This document shows positions 5,372 to 38,346 of a stretch of 40,051 nt of DNA, piece by piece. The notes under the pieces are model-generated. The model was not told the origin of the DNA. It saw only the letters and a list, made by a program, of their open reading frames with translations, and ran no database searches. The stretch's first letter is position 1, and every line of letters starts with the position of its first letter. This DNA is from a virus. Position numbers and translations under genes: made by a program. The stretch lies in IMG/VR virus record IMGVR_UViG_3300045988_160493. One strand, written 5' to 3'.

Positions 5372-6028
5372 ATGGATAACAATGAACCTAAAATGCGAGC
5401 AGAACAAATCCTCTTCGAGAGGCTTTTTGAAGTAAATGTTTCTTCTCACGTAGAAAAACGCAAAAACGGAAAAGAGGAACTCTCTTATCTTACTTGGGCG
5501 TGGGCGTGGGCAGAACTCCTAAAAATCGTACCAGACGCAAGCTATAAAATCAAAATGTTTGACGGAAAACCTTATGTCTATGATGAAATTCTTGGCTATA
5601 TGGTCTTCACTGAAATGACACTTCTGGGAATGACAAGGGAATGTTGGTTGCCAGTACTCAATGGCAATCTTAAACCTATGCTTTCCAAGCCTTATGAATA
5701 CGAAACAAAGTGGGGCAAAAACAAAGTGGAAAAGGCTACAATGTTTGATATTAACAGGGCGATTATGCGTTGCCTTACAAAAAACATTGCAATGTTTGGT
5801 CTTGGCTTAAAGCTTTATGCGGGCGAGGATTTGACAGAGAATACGACAGAAGTTGCTGACCCGACATTCACACAGGAGCAGGCAAGCAAGGCAATGGAAC
5901 GCTACGGAGAAGCCGTTATAGCCGCTTGTGAAGAAATGGGATACTCCGTACCAACGCAAATTCCACTTTCTCGCAAAAACGAATTCTTCGCGATTTGCAA
6001 GAAGTTTTCAGAACCAAAAGGAGAATAA
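5372..6028 (+). CDS. putative single-strand annealing protein (Sak/DUF1071-like, Rad52 superfamily)
   Basis: LSYLTWAWAWAELLKIVP motif reminiscent of DUF1071/Sak family; located immediately upstream of SSB as in phage recombination modules. Confidence 0.45.
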   Translation: MDNNEPKMRAEQILFERLFEVNVSSHVEKRKNGKEELSYLTWAWAWAELLKIVPDASYKIKMFDGKPYVYDEILGYMVFTEMTLLGMTRECWLPVLNGNLKPMLSKPYEYETKWGKNKVEKATMFDINRAIMRCLTKNIAMFGLGLKLYAGEDLTENTTEVADPTFTQEQASKAMERYGEAVIAACEEMGYSVPTQIPLSRKNEFFAICKKFSEPKGE

Positions 6029-6486: not shown

Positions 6487-6915
6487 ATGAATTATAACAA
6501 AGTTATCATCGGTGGCAACATTTGCAGAGACGTAGTTCTCACGACAAACAAAAACGGAACGAGCATTGTACATTTTACGGTAGCCGTAAGCAAGAAATCT
6601 ATTAACAGCAAAGGCGAAGAATTTAAGGAAGTCTCATTCCTCGATTGCGAGGCGTTCTCCAAAGTAGCCGAGAAAATCAACAAATACTTCCACAAAGGTA
6701 TGCCCATTCTCGTAGAGGGCAGATTGCGCCAATCCTCTTGGGAAGATAAAGACGGAAATAAGAGAAGCAAAGTCATAATATCCGTAGAATACTTTAACTT
6801 CTGCGGTGGTAAGGATAGCAAGGATATTGACGACGAGCCGACAACAAAAGCTCCCGAAACTACAAAAGACGCTAAGTTTGCCGAAGATTTAGAAGAAGAG
6901 GACGTTCCATTTTGA
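6487..6915 (+). CDS. ssb: single-stranded DNA-binding protein
   Basis: OB-fold SSB signature over first ~105 aa (MNYNKVIIGGNICRD...ILVEGRLRQSSWEDKDGNKRSKVIISVE) and acidic C-terminal tail ending EEEDVPF. Confidence 0.85.
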   Translation: MNYNKVIIGGNICRDVVLTTNKNGTSIVHFTVAVSKKSINSKGEEFKEVSFLDCEAFSKVAEKINKYFHKGMPILVEGRLRQSSWEDKDGNKRSKVIISVEYFNFCGGKDSKDIDDEPTTKAPETTKDAKFAEDLEEEDVPF

Positions 6916-6939: not shown

Positions 6940-7404
6940 ATGAATAAAGAAAATGAAGAATTAAAGCCCTGCCCGTTCTGCGGGGGCGAAGCGGAAATTT
7001 TCGGGCACACTGCGTCGTGGGGTGCGATATGTACAAAGTGCGGGAGTTGCAACAGGCAAGGAGGTAAAACCGAAGCCGAAGCAATAAAAAAATGGAACAA
7101 TCGAGCCGACTTGAACTATTCTGTTTTTCCGAATAGTTCAAAGCTTACCTACGCCGACGTTGAAAAAATGGTCAAGCCGTTGGAGTGGGAATTAGAATGT
7201 GAGAATGGCGATAGTGTAGCAAAGGTCGGCAAGGCTTTGTTTAGGATTTCTTACTGGGATTATGGGGAAATGTATATCGTTTTCTGCAATACTTTTTTAA
7301 TCAAAGGTGATATTTCCTTGCTTGACGAAGCTAAGCACACCGCGCGAAAATTTCTTGTTGACCTTGTCGCCGACGCACTCGGCGTGGAAAGGAGCGGGGA
7401 ATGA
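6940..7404 (+). CDS. Lar-family (restriction alleviation-like) zinc-ribbon domain fused to a ~90-aa C-terminal extension
   Basis: KPCPFCGGEAEI...CTKCGSC...EAEAIKKWNNR matches Lar_restr_allev pattern; near-identical N-terminus to gene at 9739. Confidence 0.6.
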   Translation: MNKENEELKPCPFCGGEAEIFGHTASWGAICTKCGSCNRQGGKTEAEAIKKWNNRADLNYSVFPNSSKLTYADVEKMVKPLEWELECENGDSVAKVGKALFRISYWDYGEMYIVFCNTFLIKGDISLLDEAKHTARKFLVDLVADALGVERSGE

Positions 7405-8946: not shown

Positions 8947-9021
8947 AAATTTCCTAATTTTTTCTTTGACTTGTTGAAAACAAAACTATGAAATAATGTA
9001 AACATAAAAAACAAAAAAACT

Positions 9022-9723
9022 ATGGAAAAAACAATAAACAAAAAACTATGCGAATATTGCGGAAAGCCTCTATCGGACAACGCAATTTATTATGTTAATG
9101 GAATGGGATTTTGTAACCACACTTGCGAAAATCTCTACTTGGTCTATGAGCAACACAAGAATAAAATTGCCGACGTATTCTATTCCAATACTCTGCCCAA
9201 CTACCGCCACAATGACATTGAGCGGATTAAAAACCAACTCGTAAAGCCAGAAAGGGCGGACGCCATTCTTAATTGGACGCTTGGCTCTCGTGGATTGGCG
9301 ATTATGGGAAACACAGGGTGTGGCAAAACAAGACTGCTTACCGAGTTGCTCAAACGCCTTATAAAAGAGAATTTAGTGGGCATAGAAAGCTCGCTCGAAG
9401 TCTTTTACGCAGGAGAGCTTGAACGAGCCATAATGGAAAGCTTTAAGGTTTCTGCGCAGTACTCAAACCTAATGTACAAGCTTGAAAATTGCGATTTGCT
9501 TGTTATCGACGATTTTGGCAAGGAACGCTTTACAGAGAGATTTGAATTGAGCGTATTCCAGATTTTTGAAAAGAGAATGGCGAAATTAAAGCCTACGATT
9601 TTTACAACAAATTACAAGGGCGAAGAGTTTAAGGCAAGGTTTAGCGATACACAGAATTACGAGCCTTTGAGCAGGAGAATAAACGAAAGCTTTGACAGAA
9701 TAGTATTAACAAAAAAACAATAA
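9022..9723 (+). CDS. DnaC/IstB-like AAA+ ATPase (helicase loader) with N-terminal zinc ribbon
   Basis: Walker A GNTGCGKT, Walker B LLVIDDFG, N-terminal CEYCG...CNHTC. Confidence 0.75.
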   Translation: MEKTINKKLCEYCGKPLSDNAIYYVNGMGFCNHTCENLYLVYEQHKNKIADVFYSNTLPNYRHNDIERIKNQLVKPERADAILNWTLGSRGLAIMGNTGCGKTRLLTELLKRLIKENLVGIESSLEVFYAGELERAIMESFKVSAQYSNLMYKLENCDLLVIDDFGKERFTERFELSVFQIFEKRMAKLKPTIFTTNYKGEEFKARFSDTQNYEPLSRRINESFDRIVLTKKQ

Positions 9724-9738
9724 AGAAAGGCTAACAAA

Positions 9739-9939
9739 ATGAAAGACGAAAGAGTAAAACCTTGTCCGTTTTGTGGAGGGGAAGCGGAAATTATAAAAGC
9801 GCACCTTTTTTGCGGAGACATCTACATTTGCAGATGTGTAGATTGCGTGGCGCAGTCCGCTTTTTGTGGGACAAAAGAAGAGGCTGTTGCGGAATGGAAC
9901 AGGCGCGTTTGTGTCTCAACTCCTCAAAAAAACAGATAA
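9739..9939 (+). CDS. Lar-family restriction-alleviation-like zinc-ribbon protein
   Basis: KPCPFCGGEAEI...CRCVDC...EEAVAEWNRR. Confidence 0.65.
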   Translation: MKDERVKPCPFCGGEAEIIKAHLFCGDIYICRCVDCVAQSAFCGTKEEAVAEWNRRVCVSTPQKNR

Positions 9940-10153
9940 TACAGATAAAGCAAAATTGGTATTTCCTAATGGAGCAGTTATTGAAGAGGACATAAACAAT
10001 ACAGACGATGTGTCAAAAATTTCTTTTAATAGTGCGGCAAAAGCTTTGCGGAATTTGCCTTATGATGACAAAAAAATATATATCAATATGCTTTTAGATG
10101 CATTCTTTAAAGGGGAAAACGATGAAAGAGAAAGTAAAAATAAAAATATCTAA
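9866..10153 (+). CDS. hypothetical protein; start uncertain (track ATG overlaps preceding gene by 74 nt; a TTG at 9956 is an alternative)
   Basis: ORF track. Confidence 0.3.
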   Translation: MGQKKRLLRNGTGAFVSQLLKKTDNTDKAKLVFPNGAVIEEDINNTDDVSKISFNSAAKALRNLPYDDKKIYINMLLDAFFKGENDERESKNKNI

Positions 10154-10319
10154 AAAAACCATAGAAAAATTAAGGAATAAAATATTATCAGCATATCAAA
10201 TTCCAGAGGAGTTTTTATTCCCAAAATACCATTTCGGAGAAGCTTTTTCTTTGGAGGGTAAAGAATTAGATATTTTTGCCAAAAGTGTATATTTGAACAG
10301 CAGAAAGGATAAACAATGA
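10122..10319 (+). CDS. hypothetical protein (65 aa)
   Basis: ATG 10122 after ggggaaaacg; in frame with track ORF 10098. Confidence 0.35.
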   Translation: MKEKVKIKISKKTIEKLRNKILSAYQIPEEFLFPKYHFGEAFSLEGKELDIFAKSVYLNSRKDKQ

Positions 10320-10678
10320 GTGAAATAAAACTAAATCTAATGTGGACGAAAAGCTCCGACGGCTCTTATGAGCATTTGCAAAATATTCAGTGGGTGGATT
10401 TTTCTATCCAGTTGTCCAGCAAAGTACTCTTTGAAAAAGACAACTACATTGGAGTTTTTAATTCAGTAGAAGATGCAAAAGCCTTTGTAGAAACTATGTT
10501 GACAGAAATGGTCGAGGACTCCCTAAAAACAATCGACGCAAAGATTGTCCCATTTACAGATAACGAACTTGATTTTATCCGCAAACTCATATTGCAAAAT
10601 TGCAACGTTGGCATTGTAGATAGTCTACCCGCAAGCATACTTGATAAAAATAACAACGCATTAAAGGTTCAACAATGA
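10316..10678 (+). CDS. hypothetical protein (120 aa)
   Basis: ORF track; ATGA overlaps at both ends. Confidence 0.4.
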   Translation: MSEIKLNLMWTKSSDGSYEHLQNIQWVDFSIQLSSKVLFEKDNYIGVFNSVEDAKAFVETMLTEMVEDSLKTIDAKIVPFTDNELDFIRKLILQNCNVGIVDSLPASILDKNNNALKVQQ

Positions 10679-11148
10679 GAATTATTTTAGACATCAATCC
10701 ACCAAAGAACACAGGGCAATCTGGCAAACGCTTGGGTTGTCCAAGAGGTCGAGCAATGATGTTCGAGACCAAAGAAAGCAAAGACACAAAGGCAATGTTT
10801 TATGCGTTGCTTTACAACAAAAAGCCCCAAACCCCCTTTTCGTGCCCCTTAATCTTTAAACTGTACTACTTCTTTCCCTATAACAGTACAGTAAAGACCA
10901 GTTTGAAGAAAAAGCACGCTATTATCGCAAAAACAACAAAACCCGATTATGACAACATTCCAAAGCAAATTCAGGACGTTATGACAAAGCTCGGCTTTTG
11001 GACTGACGACGCAGTAATTTTTAATGGAGGTTGCGAAAAGTATTTTGCGGAGTTTGGGAAGATTATCATTGAAATTACGCCGACAATGGCAGATTATGAC
11101 TACTCAATGATTTTTGACGAAGAATTTTTAACAAAAGAACAACTATAA
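10675..11148 (+). CDS. rusA: RusA-family Holliday junction resolvase
   Basis: KPDYDNIPKQIQDVMTKLGFWTDDAVIFNG core typical of RusA endodeoxyribonuclease. Confidence 0.7.
   Translation: MRIILDINPPKNTGQSGKRLGCPRGRAMMFETKESKDTKAMFYALLYNKKPQTPFSCPLIFKLYYFFPYNSTVKTSLKKKHAIIAKTTKPDYDNIPKQIQDVMTKLGFWTDDAVIFNGGCEKYFAEFGKIIIEITPTMADYDYSMIFDEEFLTKEQL
11130..11148 (+). repeat. 19-bp direct repeat copy 1 (AACAAAAGAACAACTATAA) = last codons + stop of rusA
   Basis: Exact identity with 11999-12017. Confidence 0.8.
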
Positions 11149-11163
11149 AAAGGGAAACAATAA

Positions 11164-11799
11164 ATGAATGAAGAACTGGTACAAACAGCGATAAAGCTTC
11201 TGCGCGACAACGAGCCGCAAGACGGCAAAGGCTACGGATTGGCGTTTAGTGGCGGGAAAGATAGCATTGTAATTAAACAACTTGCTATTGAAGCGGGCGT
11301 CAAATTCAAGGCGTTTTATTCGCAAACGACTATCGACCCGCCCGAGCTTGTGAAATACATTCGCGAGCACCATAAGGACGTTGAGTGGCTAAGAAACGGC
11401 GGCTTTTTCTCGCTAATGATTAGCAAGGGTACGCCTCCAAACTTTCGCATGAGATATTGCTGCGCGGAATTAAAAGAACAATCGATAAAAGGTTATAGGG
11501 CGCGAATTATAGGCGTGAGAGCCTCCGAAAGCATACGCCGCGCGAAGCGATGGAGCGAACGAGTTGACGACTATTCCGCGTCCGACTGCGACTATATAAT
11601 ATGCCCGATTGTGAGATGGACAGACGCCGACGTCTGGGACTTCATACGGTCGCGTAAGTTGCCATATTGCGAGCTATACGACAAGGGCTTTAAGCGTTTG
11701 GGGTGCATCGCATGTCCCATGACAAGCGTAAAAAATATAAAACGCGAATTGGAGCTATATCCCCATTTGATAAAGCATATCAACAAGCATTTCGGTTAA
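11164..11799 (+). CDS. PAPS-reductase-family PP-loop ATP pyrophosphatase-like protein (DndC/CysH-like fold); likely accessory DNA/nucleotide modification enzyme
   Basis: PP-loop FSGGKDS near N-terminus, C-terminal GCIACP cysteine pair. Confidence 0.75.
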   Translation: MNEELVQTAIKLLRDNEPQDGKGYGLAFSGGKDSIVIKQLAIEAGVKFKAFYSQTTIDPPELVKYIREHHKDVEWLRNGGFFSLMISKGTPPNFRMRYCCAELKEQSIKGYRARIIGVRASESIRRAKRWSERVDDYSASDCDYIICPIVRWTDADVWDFIRSRKLPYCELYDKGFKRLGCIACPMTSVKNIKRELELYPHLIKHINKHFG

Positions 11800-12017
11800 T
11801 GTGGGAAAAGTGGCACGACAGAATAATGCCTGCCCGCGGGAAATTCCCCGAGCGCAAGCATTTTTCTTCGCGCTTTAAAAGTGGCGAGGAATGGTATCTC
11901 CACCACATTAACAGAGGACACCCAGAGAGACAGACGGACGAAACTTGTCAAATGGAACTAATGTTTACTGGCGCAGACGCCGAAATTTTCAACGACACAA
12001 CAAAAGAACAACTATAA
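11703..12017 (+). CDS. hypothetical ORF overlapping the PAPS-reductase 3' end by 97 nt in the -1 frame (track start is GTG). Could be a separate gene, a frameshift extension, or a remnant
   Basis: ORF track; C-terminal tail IFNDTTKEQL duplicates RusA tail IFDEEFLTKEQL. Confidence 0.3.
   Translation: MHRMSHDKRKKYKTRIGAISPFDKAYQQAFRLMWEKWHDRIMPARGKFPERKHFSSRFKSGEEWYLHHINRGHPERQTDETCQMELMFTGADAEIFNDTTKEQL
11999..12017 (+). repeat. 19-bp direct repeat copy 2 = last codons + stop of ORF 11703-12017
   Basis: Exact identity with 11130-11148. Confidence 0.8.
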
Positions 12018-12037
12018 CAAGAAAGAGAGTGTAGAAT

Positions 12038-12640
12038 ATGGATAAAACAAACAAAAATGCCTCTAAAACTAATCGTAAACCTAAAAAGGTAGAAACACCC
12101 ATAACGATAGCAAATTACCAAAAATTGGCTATGAGAACGTGCTTGCCTGCTTGCAAGTGTTGGGCGTATGCTTTTCCCGCTTTAATGTCGGAAATGTGTG
12201 AGTTTTTTGCAAAACATTATGGGCAATATGCAAAATCAGTCAGAGGAGATTTTGATGAAGATTTAGATTACGGATTTGAAAATTATTCTAAAATCCGCAA
12301 AGAAATTAAAAAAGAACTTGGCGATATTGCGTGGAGCTTAGCTCTTATTTGTAAAGTTGGCGGGTATAAATTTTGTAAAGAATTAGAGTTGGCAAAGAAA
12401 AAAGGTGAACTACACCTTGTAAAAATGTTTTTGGAGGATAACATACACGATACAGTGAACGCTATTACTTTTGGAGCAGAAGATAAAAAAAGGCGTACAA
12501 TGGAATTTTGTTTTCATATTTTTGCAAGCTATTGCCACTATTATCGATTTAAAGTCTCCGACGTCCTGCGAGACAATATCCGCAAGCTTGCGTCTCGCCA
12601 AAAACGTGGCGTAATTATGGGAAACGGCGATAATAGATAA
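12038..12640 (+). CDS. MazG-like nucleoside triphosphate pyrophosphohydrolase (putative)
   Basis: YQKLAMRT near N-terminus, EIKKELGDIAWSL (E-x2-E-L-x-D-like metal site), KLASRQKRG near C-terminus. Confidence 0.45.
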   Translation: MDKTNKNASKTNRKPKKVETPITIANYQKLAMRTCLPACKCWAYAFPALMSEMCEFFAKHYGQYAKSVRGDFDEDLDYGFENYSKIRKEIKKELGDIAWSLALICKVGGYKFCKELELAKKKGELHLVKMFLEDNIHDTVNAITFGAEDKKRRTMEFCFHIFASYCHYYRFKVSDVLRDNIRKLASRQKRGVIMGNGDNR

Positions 12641-12641
12641 T

Positions 12642-12920
12642 ATGGCTAAGAAATTTACTCCCAGAGGTATCATAACCCCTGTTCCCGTCAGATGTGAGCG
12701 TTGTGGCGGTCAAGCAATGTATCAAGAATGGATTGAGGCAAGCGACAACCTAATGCAACGTTTTGGCATAATCTTTTGCCAAGATTGCGAACTCAAAAGC
12801 CGACTTCACTCCGAACGCACGCCACGCGAAACAAAACAGGAGGCTCTCAACGATTGGAAAATCCTAAACAAAATCGAAAGAGAAGTTAAAAAAAATCTTG
12901 ACACAAAACCCTCAAAGTAA
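12642..12920 (+). CDS. Lar-family-like zinc-ribbon protein (divergent paralog)
   Basis: CERCGG...CQDC...KQEALNDWK signature. Confidence 0.45.
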   Translation: MAKKFTPRGIITPVPVRCERCGGQAMYQEWIEASDNLMQRFGIIFCQDCELKSRLHSERTPRETKQEALNDWKILNKIEREVKKNLDTKPSK

Positions 12921-12933
12921 TTCAACAAAGACA

Positions 12934-13335
12934 ATGAAAGACCTAATTATCAATCTCGAAGTCATAAGAATAACGGCAAAACAGCTCCATTATTCCGAAA
13001 GTGGCGAAGCATTCTACGCAAACCACTTGCTAATGGATAGAATTGCCGAGCATCTCTCAGACTTCGTTGATGAAATAATCGAAGCTTCCATTCTCGCCGA
13101 TACTGGCAACCCGCCTATATTGGCAGACCTCTATTCCGAGATAGCGTATAAAACTCCCAAAACACCCTCTAAAAGCGATTTGAAAGACTTAATCCTTACC
13201 ACGATATACCTTATCGACGATTTAGCCAAACAAGACCGCTTTCAAGGCGACTTCGATTTGCTTGGAAGAATATCCAACAATTTAAGAAGCTCGCTTGGGT
13301 TGCTCAATAGGGTACTCGCTGGTTCGGAAAGTTGA
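12934..13335 (+). CDS. hypothetical protein (133 aa), last gene of rightward arm
   Basis: Internal ATG 12934 follows stop of upstream gene; hairpin terminators follow. Confidence 0.4.
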   Translation: MKDLIINLEVIRITAKQLHYSESGEAFYANHLLMDRIAEHLSDFVDEIIEASILADTGNPPILADLYSEIAYKTPKTPSKSDLKDLILTTIYLIDDLAKQDRFQGDFDLLGRISNNLRSSLGLLNRVLAGSES

Positions 13336-13426
13336 ATTTTGTTCATTTGTTTCCCATTGTTTATTGTTCGTATCAGTTAAGGTTGTTCGCCAAGAGGTTT
13401 TTTGTTTTTTCCTCGTAGGCAACGTA

Positions 13427-13470
13427 AAAGGCTCTGGGTTTTAATTGTTTCCCCCAGAGCCTTTCCTTTT
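13427..13470. terminator. bidirectional intrinsic terminator hairpin at the convergence point of the two arms
   Basis: AAAGGCTCTGGG / CCCAGAGCCTTT 12-bp stem, 14-nt loop; T-rich tract TTTCCTTTTACTTT on + strand and TTTT on - strand; preceded by GAGG-T6GT6-CCTC small hairpin 13395-13415. Confidence 0.6.
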
Positions 13471-13500
13471 ACTTTCTACTACCTAACCTAAAATCTAAAA

Positions 13501-35412: not shown

Positions 35413-38346
35413 TCAAAACATTCCTTTTTTTCCAAAAGCAATTTCTCCTGCTTGTGTCATCATATCGCATATATCGTCGTGTTTATGACTGCCGTCTCCG
35501 CACAATAATACCATTTCCGCAATGATTTCTTTGCTTCTTGGGTCGTTTTTATCGTTTGGCAACAGCACATTTCCCGCCTCCAAGTAAGGAAATAGCGAAT
35601 TGTTCCACTTTGTCATCTTGTCAAAGCCCTTATCTTTCACTGGAATGACCGAAACTCCGCCCTCTCGCCTCATTCTTTGTATCAATTCCATACCAGAAGC
35701 CTTATCTTCAATGTAAAATACGTTTGCAGGCAAGCCTCTCACGCCCCCACTCCACCTATTCTTAAAGGCAAAGAACTCTTTGAGCAAATCTACCGCTTCA
35801 ATCTTCTTGTGCAATAAATCTATAAGCCTTAAATCGTTCTTTTCGGTTATTGCCCACAATCCCACCGCCGTATAGTCATTCCATTCATTAGTTTTAAATG
35901 CGGTATCGGCAGTGAAGAACACTTTTTTGTACCTAACAGTGTCCAAAGGATTGTAAAACTTAAACCATTCCTCCTTTACAAGCTCGCCGCCCAAAACAAC
36001 AGGCGATTGTTGCATTTGAGCCGCAAAAATGTATGGAGATTGCTTTTTTTCTTTGAGCAAGACTTCTGTTGGGGATTTCCATTCCCAGTTGCTTTTTGGC
36101 GGATTTACATCTTCATTAAGCGCAGGAACGCGAATAATCTTCCAATCGTCGGCTTCATTCGCTTCAATATAGCCTACCAAGTCGTCAACAGCAAGCCTTT
36201 GCATAATTAGCACAATAGGCGTCTTTGAGGGATTGTTTAAACGCTTTTTAATGACCGCTTGGTAGTTATCCTCTACTTTCTTTTTCTCCGCTTCCGAATT
36301 AAAGAATTTAGCATTGAGAGGGTCGTCGATAATAAAAGCTCCTCCGAACCTATCACCGATTTTTCCACAATTATGCACAAAAACTCTTGACATTCCAACA
36401 AACAAGTTATTGACTGTTCTTAAAGTTAAACAATAACTGGGTTTATTATGAATATCATAGATAGCAAATATGTTCCTATTCCTCAATTTAAAGGATATTT
36501 CGTTTCCAGAGACGGAAGCGTTTATTCTTCTAAAACAAGAAAAGAGCTTCGCCCTTATCTTTCGCGTAAAGGCTACAAATGCGTTGACCTTTGCGTTTGT
36601 GGGAAAAGAGTTAAAACTCGTATCCACCAACTGGTTGCTTGGACATTTCTTGGAGCGCAACCTACTGGAATGGTAGTTAGACATCTTGACGGAAATGCAC
36701 TCAACAATTCTGTATCCAATCTTGCCTATGGAACACAATCCGATAATGAGCAAGATAGCATAAGACATTATGGACACCACGCCAGATACCACAAAATTAC
36801 GCCAGAACAAGCCAAAGAAATTGCGCAGGACAGACGCCCCTATAAACAGATTGCTAAGGATTATGGTCTTAATTTTCGATATGTAGCCGACATTAAGGCT
36901 GGAATTTATTGGGGTCGTATTACTGAGGGTCTCAGATTTCAAAGAAGCCGTAGTGTCGCGTGGAACAAAACGCAATTTTCTCCTAAGGATACTAAGTTTA
37001 TCTGCGACAAAAATAATTCTCGAAAAGATATAATAGAACGGTTTGGCATAAGCAAATCCGTTATTTCTCGCATCAGAAAGCAGAACAGAGTTGACGCTTA
37101 ATTCGTCGGCTCTTTTCTCGCCCTCCGTAGTGTGAAATATATGGTCGTTGGTGGCGTCTAAAACCTCGCCGTCCTCAAAGATTATGCGCTTGTATTGGGA
37201 AATGTCATTCTTGACGTAGCGTTCAATCTCTTCAAAGGAAATCTTCTCGCCGTCAAATGTCATTATTTTAACTTTCTTCTTTCCCTCTACAATGTCGCCA
37301 ATCTTTTCAACGCCATTTTCCGTCCACACAGGAGTATCTTTATCGAAACAGCCAAAACCTGTCATAGCACCCCCCATTGGAGAAGCCCTATAAGTGCCTT
37401 TCTCTTTCGTCTCCCACAATGCCTTTGCTTCGGTATTGCTGTTCATTTGAACGCCAAAGAGCTTTTGATAAAATGGGTGTCGAATTATATTCAAAATGTC
37501 GTCCGACATCTTGTTTGTTATGCGCTCTTCATAGCAAGTATAGATAAAATTGCAAGTGGAGTCTATCCCAAAGCACCACGAAATCCACATAATCATTAGA
37601 ATACTGTTGTGGGTAGGCTTTAATCTATTGCCAACGCAATAAACGCCGCCCTCAACTTGGATACAATTCCCAATTTTGCCAAAATCGCCACGCTCAACGC
37701 TTTCAAAGAAAATTTCTTTTTTATGGGCTTTTAAATCTCTTCTCTGCCTTGCAACATCATTGCTTATTTCTGGCAATAAGTATCTGTCGCGATAGAAACC
37801 TTTTTCAAGCATTTCTTTTGTCTCAATCGTCCTCTCTTTGCGCAAATGCCTATCATAAACAACCCATTCGTGATTTTCGTGGCAATAGATTTCGTCTCCG
37901 TCGGAAAATCTTACCTTGCAATTCGCAGGAGCTTTCTCGCTAACTGCCAGAACCTTAACAAATTTCCCGCTTGGACTTAACACATAATCCCCAACGACTA
38001 TTTCAGCGTGCGTTATCCAACCCCTCTTTGTAAGCACAGGTGTTTCGTCCGCTATAAGCTTCCCCCAGCGCGGAGGTATGCTAATAGCTAAATTCTTCCT
38101 TTCTGGATTGCCGTAAACAAATTCTTCCAAAGACTTTATGATTTCTTTGTGAAACCAGCAAGTGCGAAAGTAATCCTTGTATATCGCGCGATAAAAGAAT
38201 TGAATGTAAAACTCAAAATCGCTCTTTAACAACGCAGACGTGTAAGGCAACATCTCATCGCTAAGGTATTTGTCAAAATCAATGGTGTTGTTCTCCCCAT
38301 ACAACCCATTCCCATAATTAACCCTTGCTTTACTTTCCATACCCAA
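35413..38346 (-). CDS. terL: terminase large subunit precursor (977 aa) interrupted by two inteins
   Basis: Extein carries Walker A PPRWGK(S), Walker B-like AFIIDDP, coupling motif FAAQMQQSP, nuclease-domain acidic residues FFTADTAF, YIEDKASG, HDDICD; two Hint-domain insertions. Confidence 0.85.
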   Translation of the reverse strand: MGMESKARVNYGNGLYGENNTIDFDKYLSDEMLPYTSALLKSDFEFYIQFFYRAIYKDYFRTCWFHKEIIKSLEEFVYGNPERKNLAISIPPRWGKLIADETPVLTKRGWITHAEIVVGDYVLSPSGKFVKVLAVSEKAPANCKVRFSDGDEIYCHENHEWVVYDRHLRKERTIETKEMLEKGFYRDRYLLPEISNDVARQRRDLKAHKKEIFFESVERGDFGKIGNCIQVEGGVYCVGNRLKPTHNSILMIMWISWCFGIDSTCNFIYTCYEERITNKMSDDILNIIRHPFYQKLFGVQMNSNTEAKALWETKEKGTYRASPMGGAMTGFGCFDKDTPVWTENGVEKIGDIVEGKKKVKIMTFDGEKISFEEIERYVKNDISQYKRIIFEDGEVLDATNDHIFHTTEGEKRADELSVNSVLLSDARNNGFAYAKPFYYIFSRIIFVADKLSILRRKLRFVPRDTTASLKSETLSNTTPINSSLNVGYISKIKTIILSNLFIGASVLRNFFGLFWRNFVVSGVVSIMSYAILLIIGLCSIGKIGYRIVECISVKMSNYHSSRLRSKKCPSNQLVDTSFNSFPTNAKVNAFVAFTRKIRAKLFSCFRRINASVSGNEISFKLRNRNIFAIYDIHNKPSYCLTLRTVNNLFVGMSRVFVHNCGKIGDRFGGAFIIDDPLNAKFFNSEAEKKKVEDNYQAVIKKRLNNPSKTPIVLIMQRLAVDDLVGYIEANEADDWKIIRVPALNEDVNPPKSNWEWKSPTEVLLKEKKQSPYIFAAQMQQSPVVLGGELVKEEWFKFYNPLDTVRYKKVFFTADTAFKTNEWNDYTAVGLWAITEKNDLRLIDLLHKKIEAVDLLKEFFAFKNRWSGGVRGLPANVFYIEDKASGMELIQRMRREGGVSVIPVKDKGFDKMTKWNNSLFPYLEAGNVLLPNDKNDPRSKEIIAEMVLLCGDGSHKHDDICDMMTQAGEIAFGKKGMF
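36370..37350 (-). mobile_element. intein 2 (about 327 aa, TerL residues 333-659), canonical class 1, with its central region antisense to an HNH gene
   Basis: Block A CFDKDTPVWTENGVEKIGDIVEG, block B VLDATNDHIFHTTEGEKRADEL, block F/G IFAIYDIHN...FVGMSRVFVHN followed by +1 Cys (CGKIGDRF). Confidence 0.7.
36448..37101 (+). CDS. HNH homing endonuclease (NUMOD4 + HNH_3 type), on the strand opposite to terL, nested inside intein 2
   Basis: PQFKGYFVSRDGSVYS (NUMOD4-like), HQLVAWTFLG...VRHLDGNALNNSVSNLAYGTQSDN (HNH), C-terminal helix-turn-helix-like ISKSVISRIRK. Confidence 0.8.
   Translation: MNIIDSKYVPIPQFKGYFVSRDGSVYSSKTRKELRPYLSRKGYKCVDLCVCGKRVKTRIHQLVAWTFLGAQPTGMVVRHLDGNALNNSVSNLAYGTQSDNEQDSIRHYGHHARYHKITPEQAKEIAQDRRPYKQIAKDYGLNFRYVADIKAGIYWGRITEGLRFQRSRSVAWNKTQFSPKDTKFICDKNNSRKDIIERFGISKSVISRIRKQNRVDA
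37606..38058 (-). mobile_element. mini-intein 1 (about 151 aa, TerL residues ~97-247) inserted in the Walker A P-loop; class-3-like (no N-terminal Cys/Ser)
   Basis: Block A LIADETPVLTKRGW...VVGDYV, block B DEIYCHENHEW (Trp at B:12), block F GNCIQVEGG (Cys at F:4), block G KPTHN then +1 Ser. Confidence 0.6.

Follow-up and report, generated by a model that had tools for sequence, protein, structure and literature searches.

The sequence analysed here is a phage genome segment of 40,051 nt (IMG/VR record IMGVR_UViG_3300045988_160493), and we refer to this whole stretch as the window. Between the Holliday-junction resolvase gene rusA and a gene encoding a MazG-like pyrophosphatase, it carries a PAPS-reductase-like gene that is bracketed by two exact copies of a 19-bp sequence. 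The origin of this arrangement is our subject. The features of the junction are as follows.

10675..11148, + strand: rusA, Holliday-junction resolvase, 157 aa, intact (Pfam RusA, E=2.6e-18, residues 24-135)
11130..11148, + strand: repeat copy 1, the original rusA 3' end (T K E Q L stop); exact match, with the left flank of the single-copy site of L009, L010, L011 and L046
11149..11998, + strand: putative inserted foreign DNA, 850 bp, comprising a 15-nt leader and the PAPS-reductase-like gene minus its own stop (recognized by its absence from seven relatives and by its GC content)
11149..11163, + strand: leader AAAGGGAAACAATAA, directly ahead of the ATG of the inserted gene at 11164; Shine-Dalgarno-like and, from a reading of the sequence, probably brought in with the insert
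11164..11799, + strand: PAPS-reductase-like N-terminal open reading frame (ORF), 211 aa (Pfam PF01507, E=1.4e-26; PHROG 424, E=2e-36)
11766..11768, + strand: T-run with one T missing relative to homologues, which splits the gene (three-frame translation, homologue codons)
11799..12017, + strand: PAPS-reductase C-terminal part, in the -1 frame, a 72-aa ORF (listed by gene callers in L004-L008)
11999..12017, + strand: repeat copy 2, the putative duplicated rusA tail; exact match, followed on the right by the same sequence as the single copy of relatives
12018..12037, + strand: rusA-MazG spacer, CAAGAAAGAGAGTGTAGAAT, the same as in empty-site relatives
12038..12640, + strand: MazG-like pyrophosphatase gene, 200 aa, the right-hand neighbour (Pfam MazG, E=2.5e-4, at 21.7 bits just under the curated 22.0-bit cutoff; PHROG 229, E=2.5e-12)

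The 19-mer AACAAAAGAACAACTATAA occurs on the + strand at 11130-11148 and 11999-12017, with a start-to-start spacing of 869 nt, and no further copy was detected in the window, even allowing up to 3 mismatches. The repeat is exactly 19 nt long, being bounded by mismatches on the left (T vs C) and on the right (A vs C). Copy 1 provides the last 6 codons and the stop of rusA, and copy 2 provides the same for the frame ending at 12017. Shuffled sequence gave a mean of 0.04 matches to the 19-mer, and two or more matches were obtained in 0 of 100 shuffles. The first-pass annotation, which reported exact 19-bp direct repeats around a PAPS-reductase-like module and a chance expectation far below 1 in 40 kb, was thus correct on both counts. 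It also described the two C-termini as alike at the protein level (IFDEEFL vs IFNDT); at the DNA level, the similarity extends only marginally upstream of the repeat, GACGAAGAATTTTT and GACGCCGAAATTTT sharing 11 of 14 positions (p about 0.013 at 30 nt, not significant at 60 nt).

The occupied arrangement is 100% identical over 9000-13500 in five fetched contigs (L004-L008) from different runs and assemblers, drawn from 23 contigs with the same gene product. Given this identity, and given that the usual assembly k-mers are longer than the 19-nt repeat, the arrangement is not an assembly artefact, the objection that the first-pass annotation had itself foreseen. A repeat arising by chance from A-rich gene ends would find some basis in the local composition, as K/Q/N/T codons close many of the genes here and overlap the A-rich start context of the gene that follows, and the 19-mer does recur by chance in very large databases: among the 68 loci obtained from scans of metagenome and genome collections, L046 is the only related one and the others are chance matches of an A-rich word. 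At this locus, nonetheless, about 0.04 matches are expected in 40 kb with 3 mismatches, the flanks match those of empty-site relatives base for base, and the five fetched assemblies agree, leaving coincidence or artefact with a negligible probability.

Relatives lacking the PAPS-reductase-like gene carry the same junction in an empty state. A RusA protein 98% identical to that of the window (P0121) is encoded on three ENA contigs, L009, L010 and L011, which read ...GACGAAGAATTTTT-AACAAAAGAACAACTATAA-CAAGAAAGAGAGTGTAGAATATGGCT... and continue into the MazG-like gene. In these three contigs, as well as in L046 (found by a 19-mer scan of metagenome contigs) and L167, the empty site has a single 19-mer between the sequence found to the left of copy 1 and that found to the right of copy 2. 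L167, L168 and L169 were reached through MazG-like homologues, of which P0150-P0157 adjoin rusA. L167, a 40.7-kb contig, carries rusA with the TKEQL tail, a single 19-mer and then MazG, while L168 and L169 have an empty site with a diverged rusA tail (FFTKEIL-stop) and a longer spacer before MazG. The rusA and MazG-like genes are directly adjacent in seven relatives, the flanks of the empty-site relatives range from about 97% to about 77% identity to the window, with 79-97% among the five that carry the 19-mer itself, and the occupied state was found only in contigs 100% identical to it. The comparison with cassette-free relatives that the first-pass annotation proposed therefore gave the expected order, with rusA followed directly by the MazG-like gene, a single 19-mer and colinear flanks. 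The MazG-like gene itself is mosaic relative to L009 (1806-2429): the first ~300 nt are 79.6% identical, the region at about 12347-12541 is unalignable, and the last 100 nt together with the next gene are 96.6% identical.

Megablast of the region against GenBank phages gave no match, and no cultured phage has a portal protein more than 34% identical to that of the window. The rusA relatives detected in IMG/VR (L001-L003) are distant and have another rusA tail and other neighbours, and no relatives of the MazG-like protein were found in that database. In distant relatives, rusA is located elsewhere and has a short unrelated tail.

The two genes that now share the tail differ in how it is distributed among their homologues. 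The C-terminal tail of RusA (...MADYDYSMIFDEEFLTKEQL-stop) extends past the RusA domain and is lineage-specific; a 157-aa RusA with the same tail is found in P0121, L166 and L167, and with the diverged tail in L168 and L169. A RusA-family alignment was uninformative on the age of TKEQL for distant homologues, and it was the 157-aa RusA of L167, L168 and L169 that settled the point: the tail ...IFDEEFLTKEQL belongs to rusA across the clade, deeply diverged members included. By contrast, TKEQL is not the C-terminus of any of 119 PAPS-reductase homologues. In these proteins, the conserved core extends to ...CQMELMFTG, beyond which they carry a short acidic tail of variable sequence; their genes lie in five other gene neighbourhoods, never directly after rusA. 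The insert has a GC content of 0.475, compared with 0.387 +/- 0.024 across the remaining 850-nt windows of the early gene block, none of which exceeds 0.448. Because the tail is native to rusA and absent from all 119 homologues, and because of the GC content of the insert and the varied neighbourhoods of its homologues, the PAPS-reductase-like gene is best regarded as the newcomer and copy 2 as a duplicated rusA tail. The first-pass proposal of a cassette inserted at the rusA tail, duplicating it, is borne out by the empty-site relatives, with TKEQL apparently native to rusA and borrowed by the PAPS-reductase-like gene.

We consider it probable, at roughly 75%, that 850 bp of foreign DNA was inserted at the junction of rusA and the MazG-like gene, duplicating 19 bp of the recipient. 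The event would have taken place by recombination in a recent ancestor of the lineage. The incoming piece would have consisted of the PAPS-reductase-like gene with its own 15-nt translation leader and without its native 3' end, the left joint lying directly after the rusA stop and the right joint within the rusA tail, 19 nt upstream of the left one. With joints offset by 19 nt, 19 bp of recipient sequence would come to stand on both sides of the insert, whose register is ambiguous by up to 19 nt owing to the repeat. In the resulting arrangement, rusA is intact, the MazG-like gene keeps its native 39 nt upstream, and the incoming gene ends in ...TKEQL-stop, copy 2 supplying its last 6 codons and stop. 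Start contexts similar in style to its leader (AAAGGnnAAACAAnATG) are found at 9725-9741, 10304-10318 and 10663-10677.

Template switching between co-replicating phage genomes, or short-homology or illegitimate recombination between them, may have formed such joints. The recipient sequences to the left and to the right of the insert possibly came from different molecules, so the joints need not coincide. Selection would retain those products that have the rusA stop, a stop for the incoming ORF and the MazG leader, and the inserted gene would be co-transcribed with its neighbours rather than act as a self-contained transcription unit. Once present, the two 19-bp copies would be a potential substrate for precise loss of the cassette. 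The window encodes several proteins that could act in such an event.

1950-2600: PolB-type 3'-5' exonuclease domain protein (window ORF)
5372-6028: Sak-family single-strand-annealing protein (E=1e-46)
6487-6915: SSB (window ORF)

Rad52-like annealing proteins drive phage mosaicism on short or diverged homology (PMC3945230), and the involvement of the exonuclease, Sak, SSB and RusA is plausible, although we only infer it.

A second cassette was detected at the same junction in L166, whose MazG-like protein is 96% identical to that of the window.

L166 1247-1613: cassette of 328 bp with 8-bp direct repeats (comparison with the window)

The order in L166 is rusA, the 19-mer, CAAGAAAG, a 99-aa ORF without Pfam or PHROG match, CAAGAAAG again, the rest of the normal spacer and MazG. 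The 8-bp duplication corresponds to the first spacer bases (the first 8 nt of 12018..12037 in the window) and lies 19 nt to the right of the right joint of the window. The ends of the two cassettes are unlike, and the duplications are neither equally long nor at the same place. The L166 cassette is an independent insertion, unrelated to the PAPS-reductase insert. With this 328-bp cassette and its 8-bp duplication, L166 shows that the junction is used repeatedly, and it is best described as a recurrent insertion hot spot, though one without a single fixed sequence.

These states also bear on the opposite polarity, in which the cassette is ancestral and was precisely removed at the empty sites when the 19-bp repeats recombined or slipped. 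The occupied and empty junctions are exactly as repeat-mediated deletion would leave them, phages are known to lose DNA between short direct repeats (as cited in PMC5630979), this phage has a single-strand-annealing protein of its own, and the same ambiguity was stated for mycobacteriophage LRRHood by Pope et al. (PMC3029335). However, empty sites are found in at least five separately diverged backgrounds, including L168 and L169 with their TKEIL tail and longer spacer, whereas the occupied state is confined to one clonal sequence. The insert has a foreign GC content, L166 carries an independent insertion at the same junction, and the repeats would still require a first insertion that copied the rusA tail. 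Given this distribution of states, secondary empty sites would be the less economical reading, and we regard an ancestral cassette as unlikely.

Another possibility is that the 19-mer is a conserved boundary or linker sequence and that the cassette was swapped in by homologous recombination from a donor whose PAPS-reductase gene already ended in the 19-mer. Recombination at boundary sequences is an established proposal (PMC3029335; PMC3945230). Within the window, the tail of a DnaC-like gene (9022-9723), TTTGAC...TTAACAAAAAAACAATAA, shares 23 of 30 positions with the rusA tail and keeps the same register up to the stop; it is the best non-self match in the window, its score was reached in 0 of 200 shuffles, and a variable cassette also follows this gene. 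The marginal extra similarity upstream of copy 2 points in the same direction. On the other hand, the tail is present in no PAPS-reductase homologue. The exact 19-mer had no match in IMG/VR and was otherwise found only at the rusA end of relatives (L046), the remaining matches being due to chance. The L166 cassette used another, 8-bp sequence 19 nt further right, and 19 bp is shorter than the 23-27 bp of the Red-beta minimal efficient pairing segment (PMC3945230). A pre-existing boundary thus seems rather improbable. The first-pass annotation had suggested looking for TKEQL-type boundaries elsewhere, and the restriction of the exact 19-mer to the rusA end in these collections suggests that it is not a widespread linker.

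The DnaC-like gene, which encodes a DnaC/IstB-like loader, ends in FDRIVLTKKQ-stop (the stretches compared were 9691-9723 and 11113-11148 of the window). This tail is native to the loader family, the L003 loader ending in FFDRVVFTRKER-stop. The likeness between the loader and rusA tails may be the trace of an older tail duplication or a shared peptide motif. It may be that rusA took its tail from the loader gene in a similar but older event, which the sequences allow and do not establish. Extending this idea, the region upstream of the MazG-like gene could be a landing site to which genes were added serially, each inheriting the C-terminal tail of its left neighbour (FDRIVLTKKQ, then FDEEFLTKEQL, then IFNDTTKEQL). 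On this reading, rusA itself would have arrived in this way, and tail plus spacer would form a reusable adaptor for recombination and translation coupling, driven by Sak annealing. We consider this doubtful; if true, it would be a recombinase-independent analogue of an integron attachment site. The DNA that follows the loader gene (9738-10303) is absent from L046 and L166. This 566-bp segment contains a Lar-like ORF of 66 aa together with small ORFs of 95 aa and 73 aa that overlap, is bounded by the similar start contexts AGAAAGGCTAACAAAATG and AGAAAGGATAAACAATG, and represents a second whole-gene indel at a gene boundary.

Direct repeats around an insert that is missing from relatives, at a site used repeatedly, are also what a small mobile element would produce, either a transposon-like element with a target-site duplication or an integron-like cassette with an attachment site. 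As in a transposon target-site duplication, recipient sequence is directly duplicated on both sides of the insert. However, one PAPS-reductase gene fills the insert, and neither the ORF list nor Pfam revealed a transposase, integrase or homing endonuclease gene in it. Terminal inverted repeats and an attC-like palindrome are also absent, and 19 bp exceeds typical target duplications. The arrangement occurs once: no second copy of the cassette nor, chance matches aside, of the 19-mer away from the junction was found in the window, in IMG/VR or in the metagenome and genome scans. Moreover, the cassettes of the window and L166 share no ends, and their duplications are unlike in length and position. 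The transposon or integron reading was rejected for want of inverted ends and a recombinase, and we give a mobile element very little credence.

Some observations weigh against the foreign insertion with duplication that we favour. A donor was not found in our searches: the best homologue is 74% identical at the protein level, and the closest PAPS-reductase homologues (P0001, P0003, P0005, P0007 and P0011) have other flanks and other 3' ends. Part of the 19 nt could be microhomology between donor and recipient rather than pure duplication. The similarity upstream of the repeat (11/14) and that of the DnaC-like tail (23/30) may hint that a short shared sequence guided the event. Taken alone, the occupied and empty sequences also fit an origin of some empty sites by precise deletion. 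All occupied contigs are clonal and possibly represent one cohort, and the role of the Sak system is only inferred.

The inserted gene is itself interrupted. Its 211-aa N-terminal ORF contains a complete PAPS_reduct domain (profile positions 4-173 of 175) with the PP-loop motif SGGKDS. Where homologues read TAT CCG CAT TTT GAA (YPHFE/D), the window reads TAT CCC CAT TT- GAT, and the upstream frame stops at 11797-11799. The homologous downstream frame runs from about 11763, and the ATG of the 72-aa ORF overlaps the stop (TAATG, 11797-11801). Residues 10-90 of the downstream frame (ORF2) align with residues 193-273 of P0001, the closest full-length homologue, at 72% identity (E=4e-42). Consequently, the ORF at 11703-12017, which the first-pass annotation treated as a separate gene (ORF 11703), is actually the C-terminal portion of the PAPS-reductase gene, put out of frame by the missing T. 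All 23 contigs with the gene share this break, which may mark a pseudogene or a working two-piece protein. Since the identical 211-aa product (P0002) is found on these 23 contigs and no unbroken near-identical copy turned up in the homologue search, the 1-nt deletion is real and fixed in this lineage; under the favoured insertion, it would have followed the arrival of the gene. A programmed -1 frameshift at 11758-11770 was considered and judged unlikely, as the region lacks an X XXY YYZ slippery heptamer and shows a simple missing T relative to homologues.

The ECGLH cysteine motif is the C-terminal catalytic motif that defines true CysH. It was not found in the frameshift-corrected 284-aa sequence. 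The gene shares the PAPS_reduct domain and SGGKDS with phage PP-loop proteins annotated as cysH (PHROG 424; cysH of Clostridium phage LPCPA58 and proteins of Bacteroides phages BF8P1 and BF10P1), with 37-44% identity to the annotated phage proteins and at most 43% to its relatives in IMG/VR. It differs in being split into two ORFs and in its chimeric C-terminus, and the ECGLH of true CysH is not seen in it. Thus, of the features of an assimilatory CysH, the PAPS_reduct domain is present, while ECGLH and an intact single polypeptide are not.

The closest parallel is found in genes 43-46 of mycobacteriophage LRRHood, a 1.35-kb insert between 29-bp direct repeats, of which phage Cali has just one (Pope et al. 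2011, PMC3029335). In both cases, extra DNA absent from close relatives is flanked by exact short direct repeats without a transposase, relatives have just one copy, at the very 3' end of the gene upstream, and insertion and deletion are subject to the same ambiguity. The window differs in that the repeat is 19 bp rather than 29 bp, the insert holds one gene rather than four, the second copy supplies the C-terminus and stop of the inserted gene, and an unrelated second cassette is found at the junction. With bracketing repeats identical at 19 of 19 positions, a single copy in colinear relatives, and neither mobile-element genes nor inverted ends, all the features of the LRRHood type are present, and the window is a further member of this kind, in an uncultivated phage without a close cultured relative. 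What it adds to LRRHood is that the C-terminus is chimeric, that the cargo gene is frameshifted and that the junction can hold another cassette.

Extra genes of this kind are often discussed as morons, a term reportedly applied to lambdoid phages by Juhala et al. (2000). The PAPS-reductase-like gene resembles a moron in lying between genes that are adjacent in related phages and in its deviant GC content, and its family belongs to the PHROGs category 'moron, auxiliary metabolic gene and host takeover'. The moron definition also includes an own promoter and terminator (PMC3594210, 'The moron comes of age'). Unlike a moron, the insert has only 15 nt of own DNA upstream and none downstream, lies inside a co-oriented early operon and is split by a frameshift. 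Promoter and terminator scans of the insert, covering sigma-70-type promoters, gave no more than is expected from shuffles and detected nothing at either end of the insert. For these reasons, the insert shows two of the three classical moron features and not the third, its own promoter and terminator, and a classical moron so equipped is unsupported by the scans. The first-pass description of an accessory, moron-like acquisition with precise junctions therefore stands for the acquisition and the junctions, on the evidence of empty sites, GC content and gene contexts, and for the word moron only in a loose sense.

The nin region of lambdoid phages holds variable small early genes around a resolvase of the rusA/rap type. 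The block studied here is similar in having small early genes of variable content beside a Holliday-junction resolvase, with whole-gene indels between close relatives, but it has no sequence relationship to the lambda nin genes. The comparison leans partly on a remark in PMC5630979.

The junction thus illustrates at base-pair resolution, for uncultivated phages, how an operon gains an accessory gene without disruption of the neighbouring genes, and the same junction is known in occupied, empty and alternatively occupied states. It suggests that a short duplication of the recipient can supply the stop and C-terminus of an incoming gene and leave the sequence ahead of the following gene as it was. 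It is also a warning for annotation: what would be labelled a "PAPS reductase/cysH auxiliary metabolic gene" is here, on our reading, recently acquired and frameshifted, with a chimeric C-terminus. Views of phage mosaicism are unchanged, the case being a clean illustration of something ordinary for phage genomics.

Other features of the window were recorded in passing. Three ORFs resemble Lar restriction-alleviation proteins: the first (6940-7404) passes the Pfam cutoff (E=4e-14), the second (12642-12920) falls below it (E=5e-5), and the third (9739-9939) is flagged only by a precomputed annotation in L005. On the - strand, a 977-aa ORF (35413-38346) matches the Terminase_6C nuclease domain only at residues 813-966 and is unusually large for a terminase. 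The first 1000 nt of the window have a very low GC content, 0.25 compared with 0.40 for the window.

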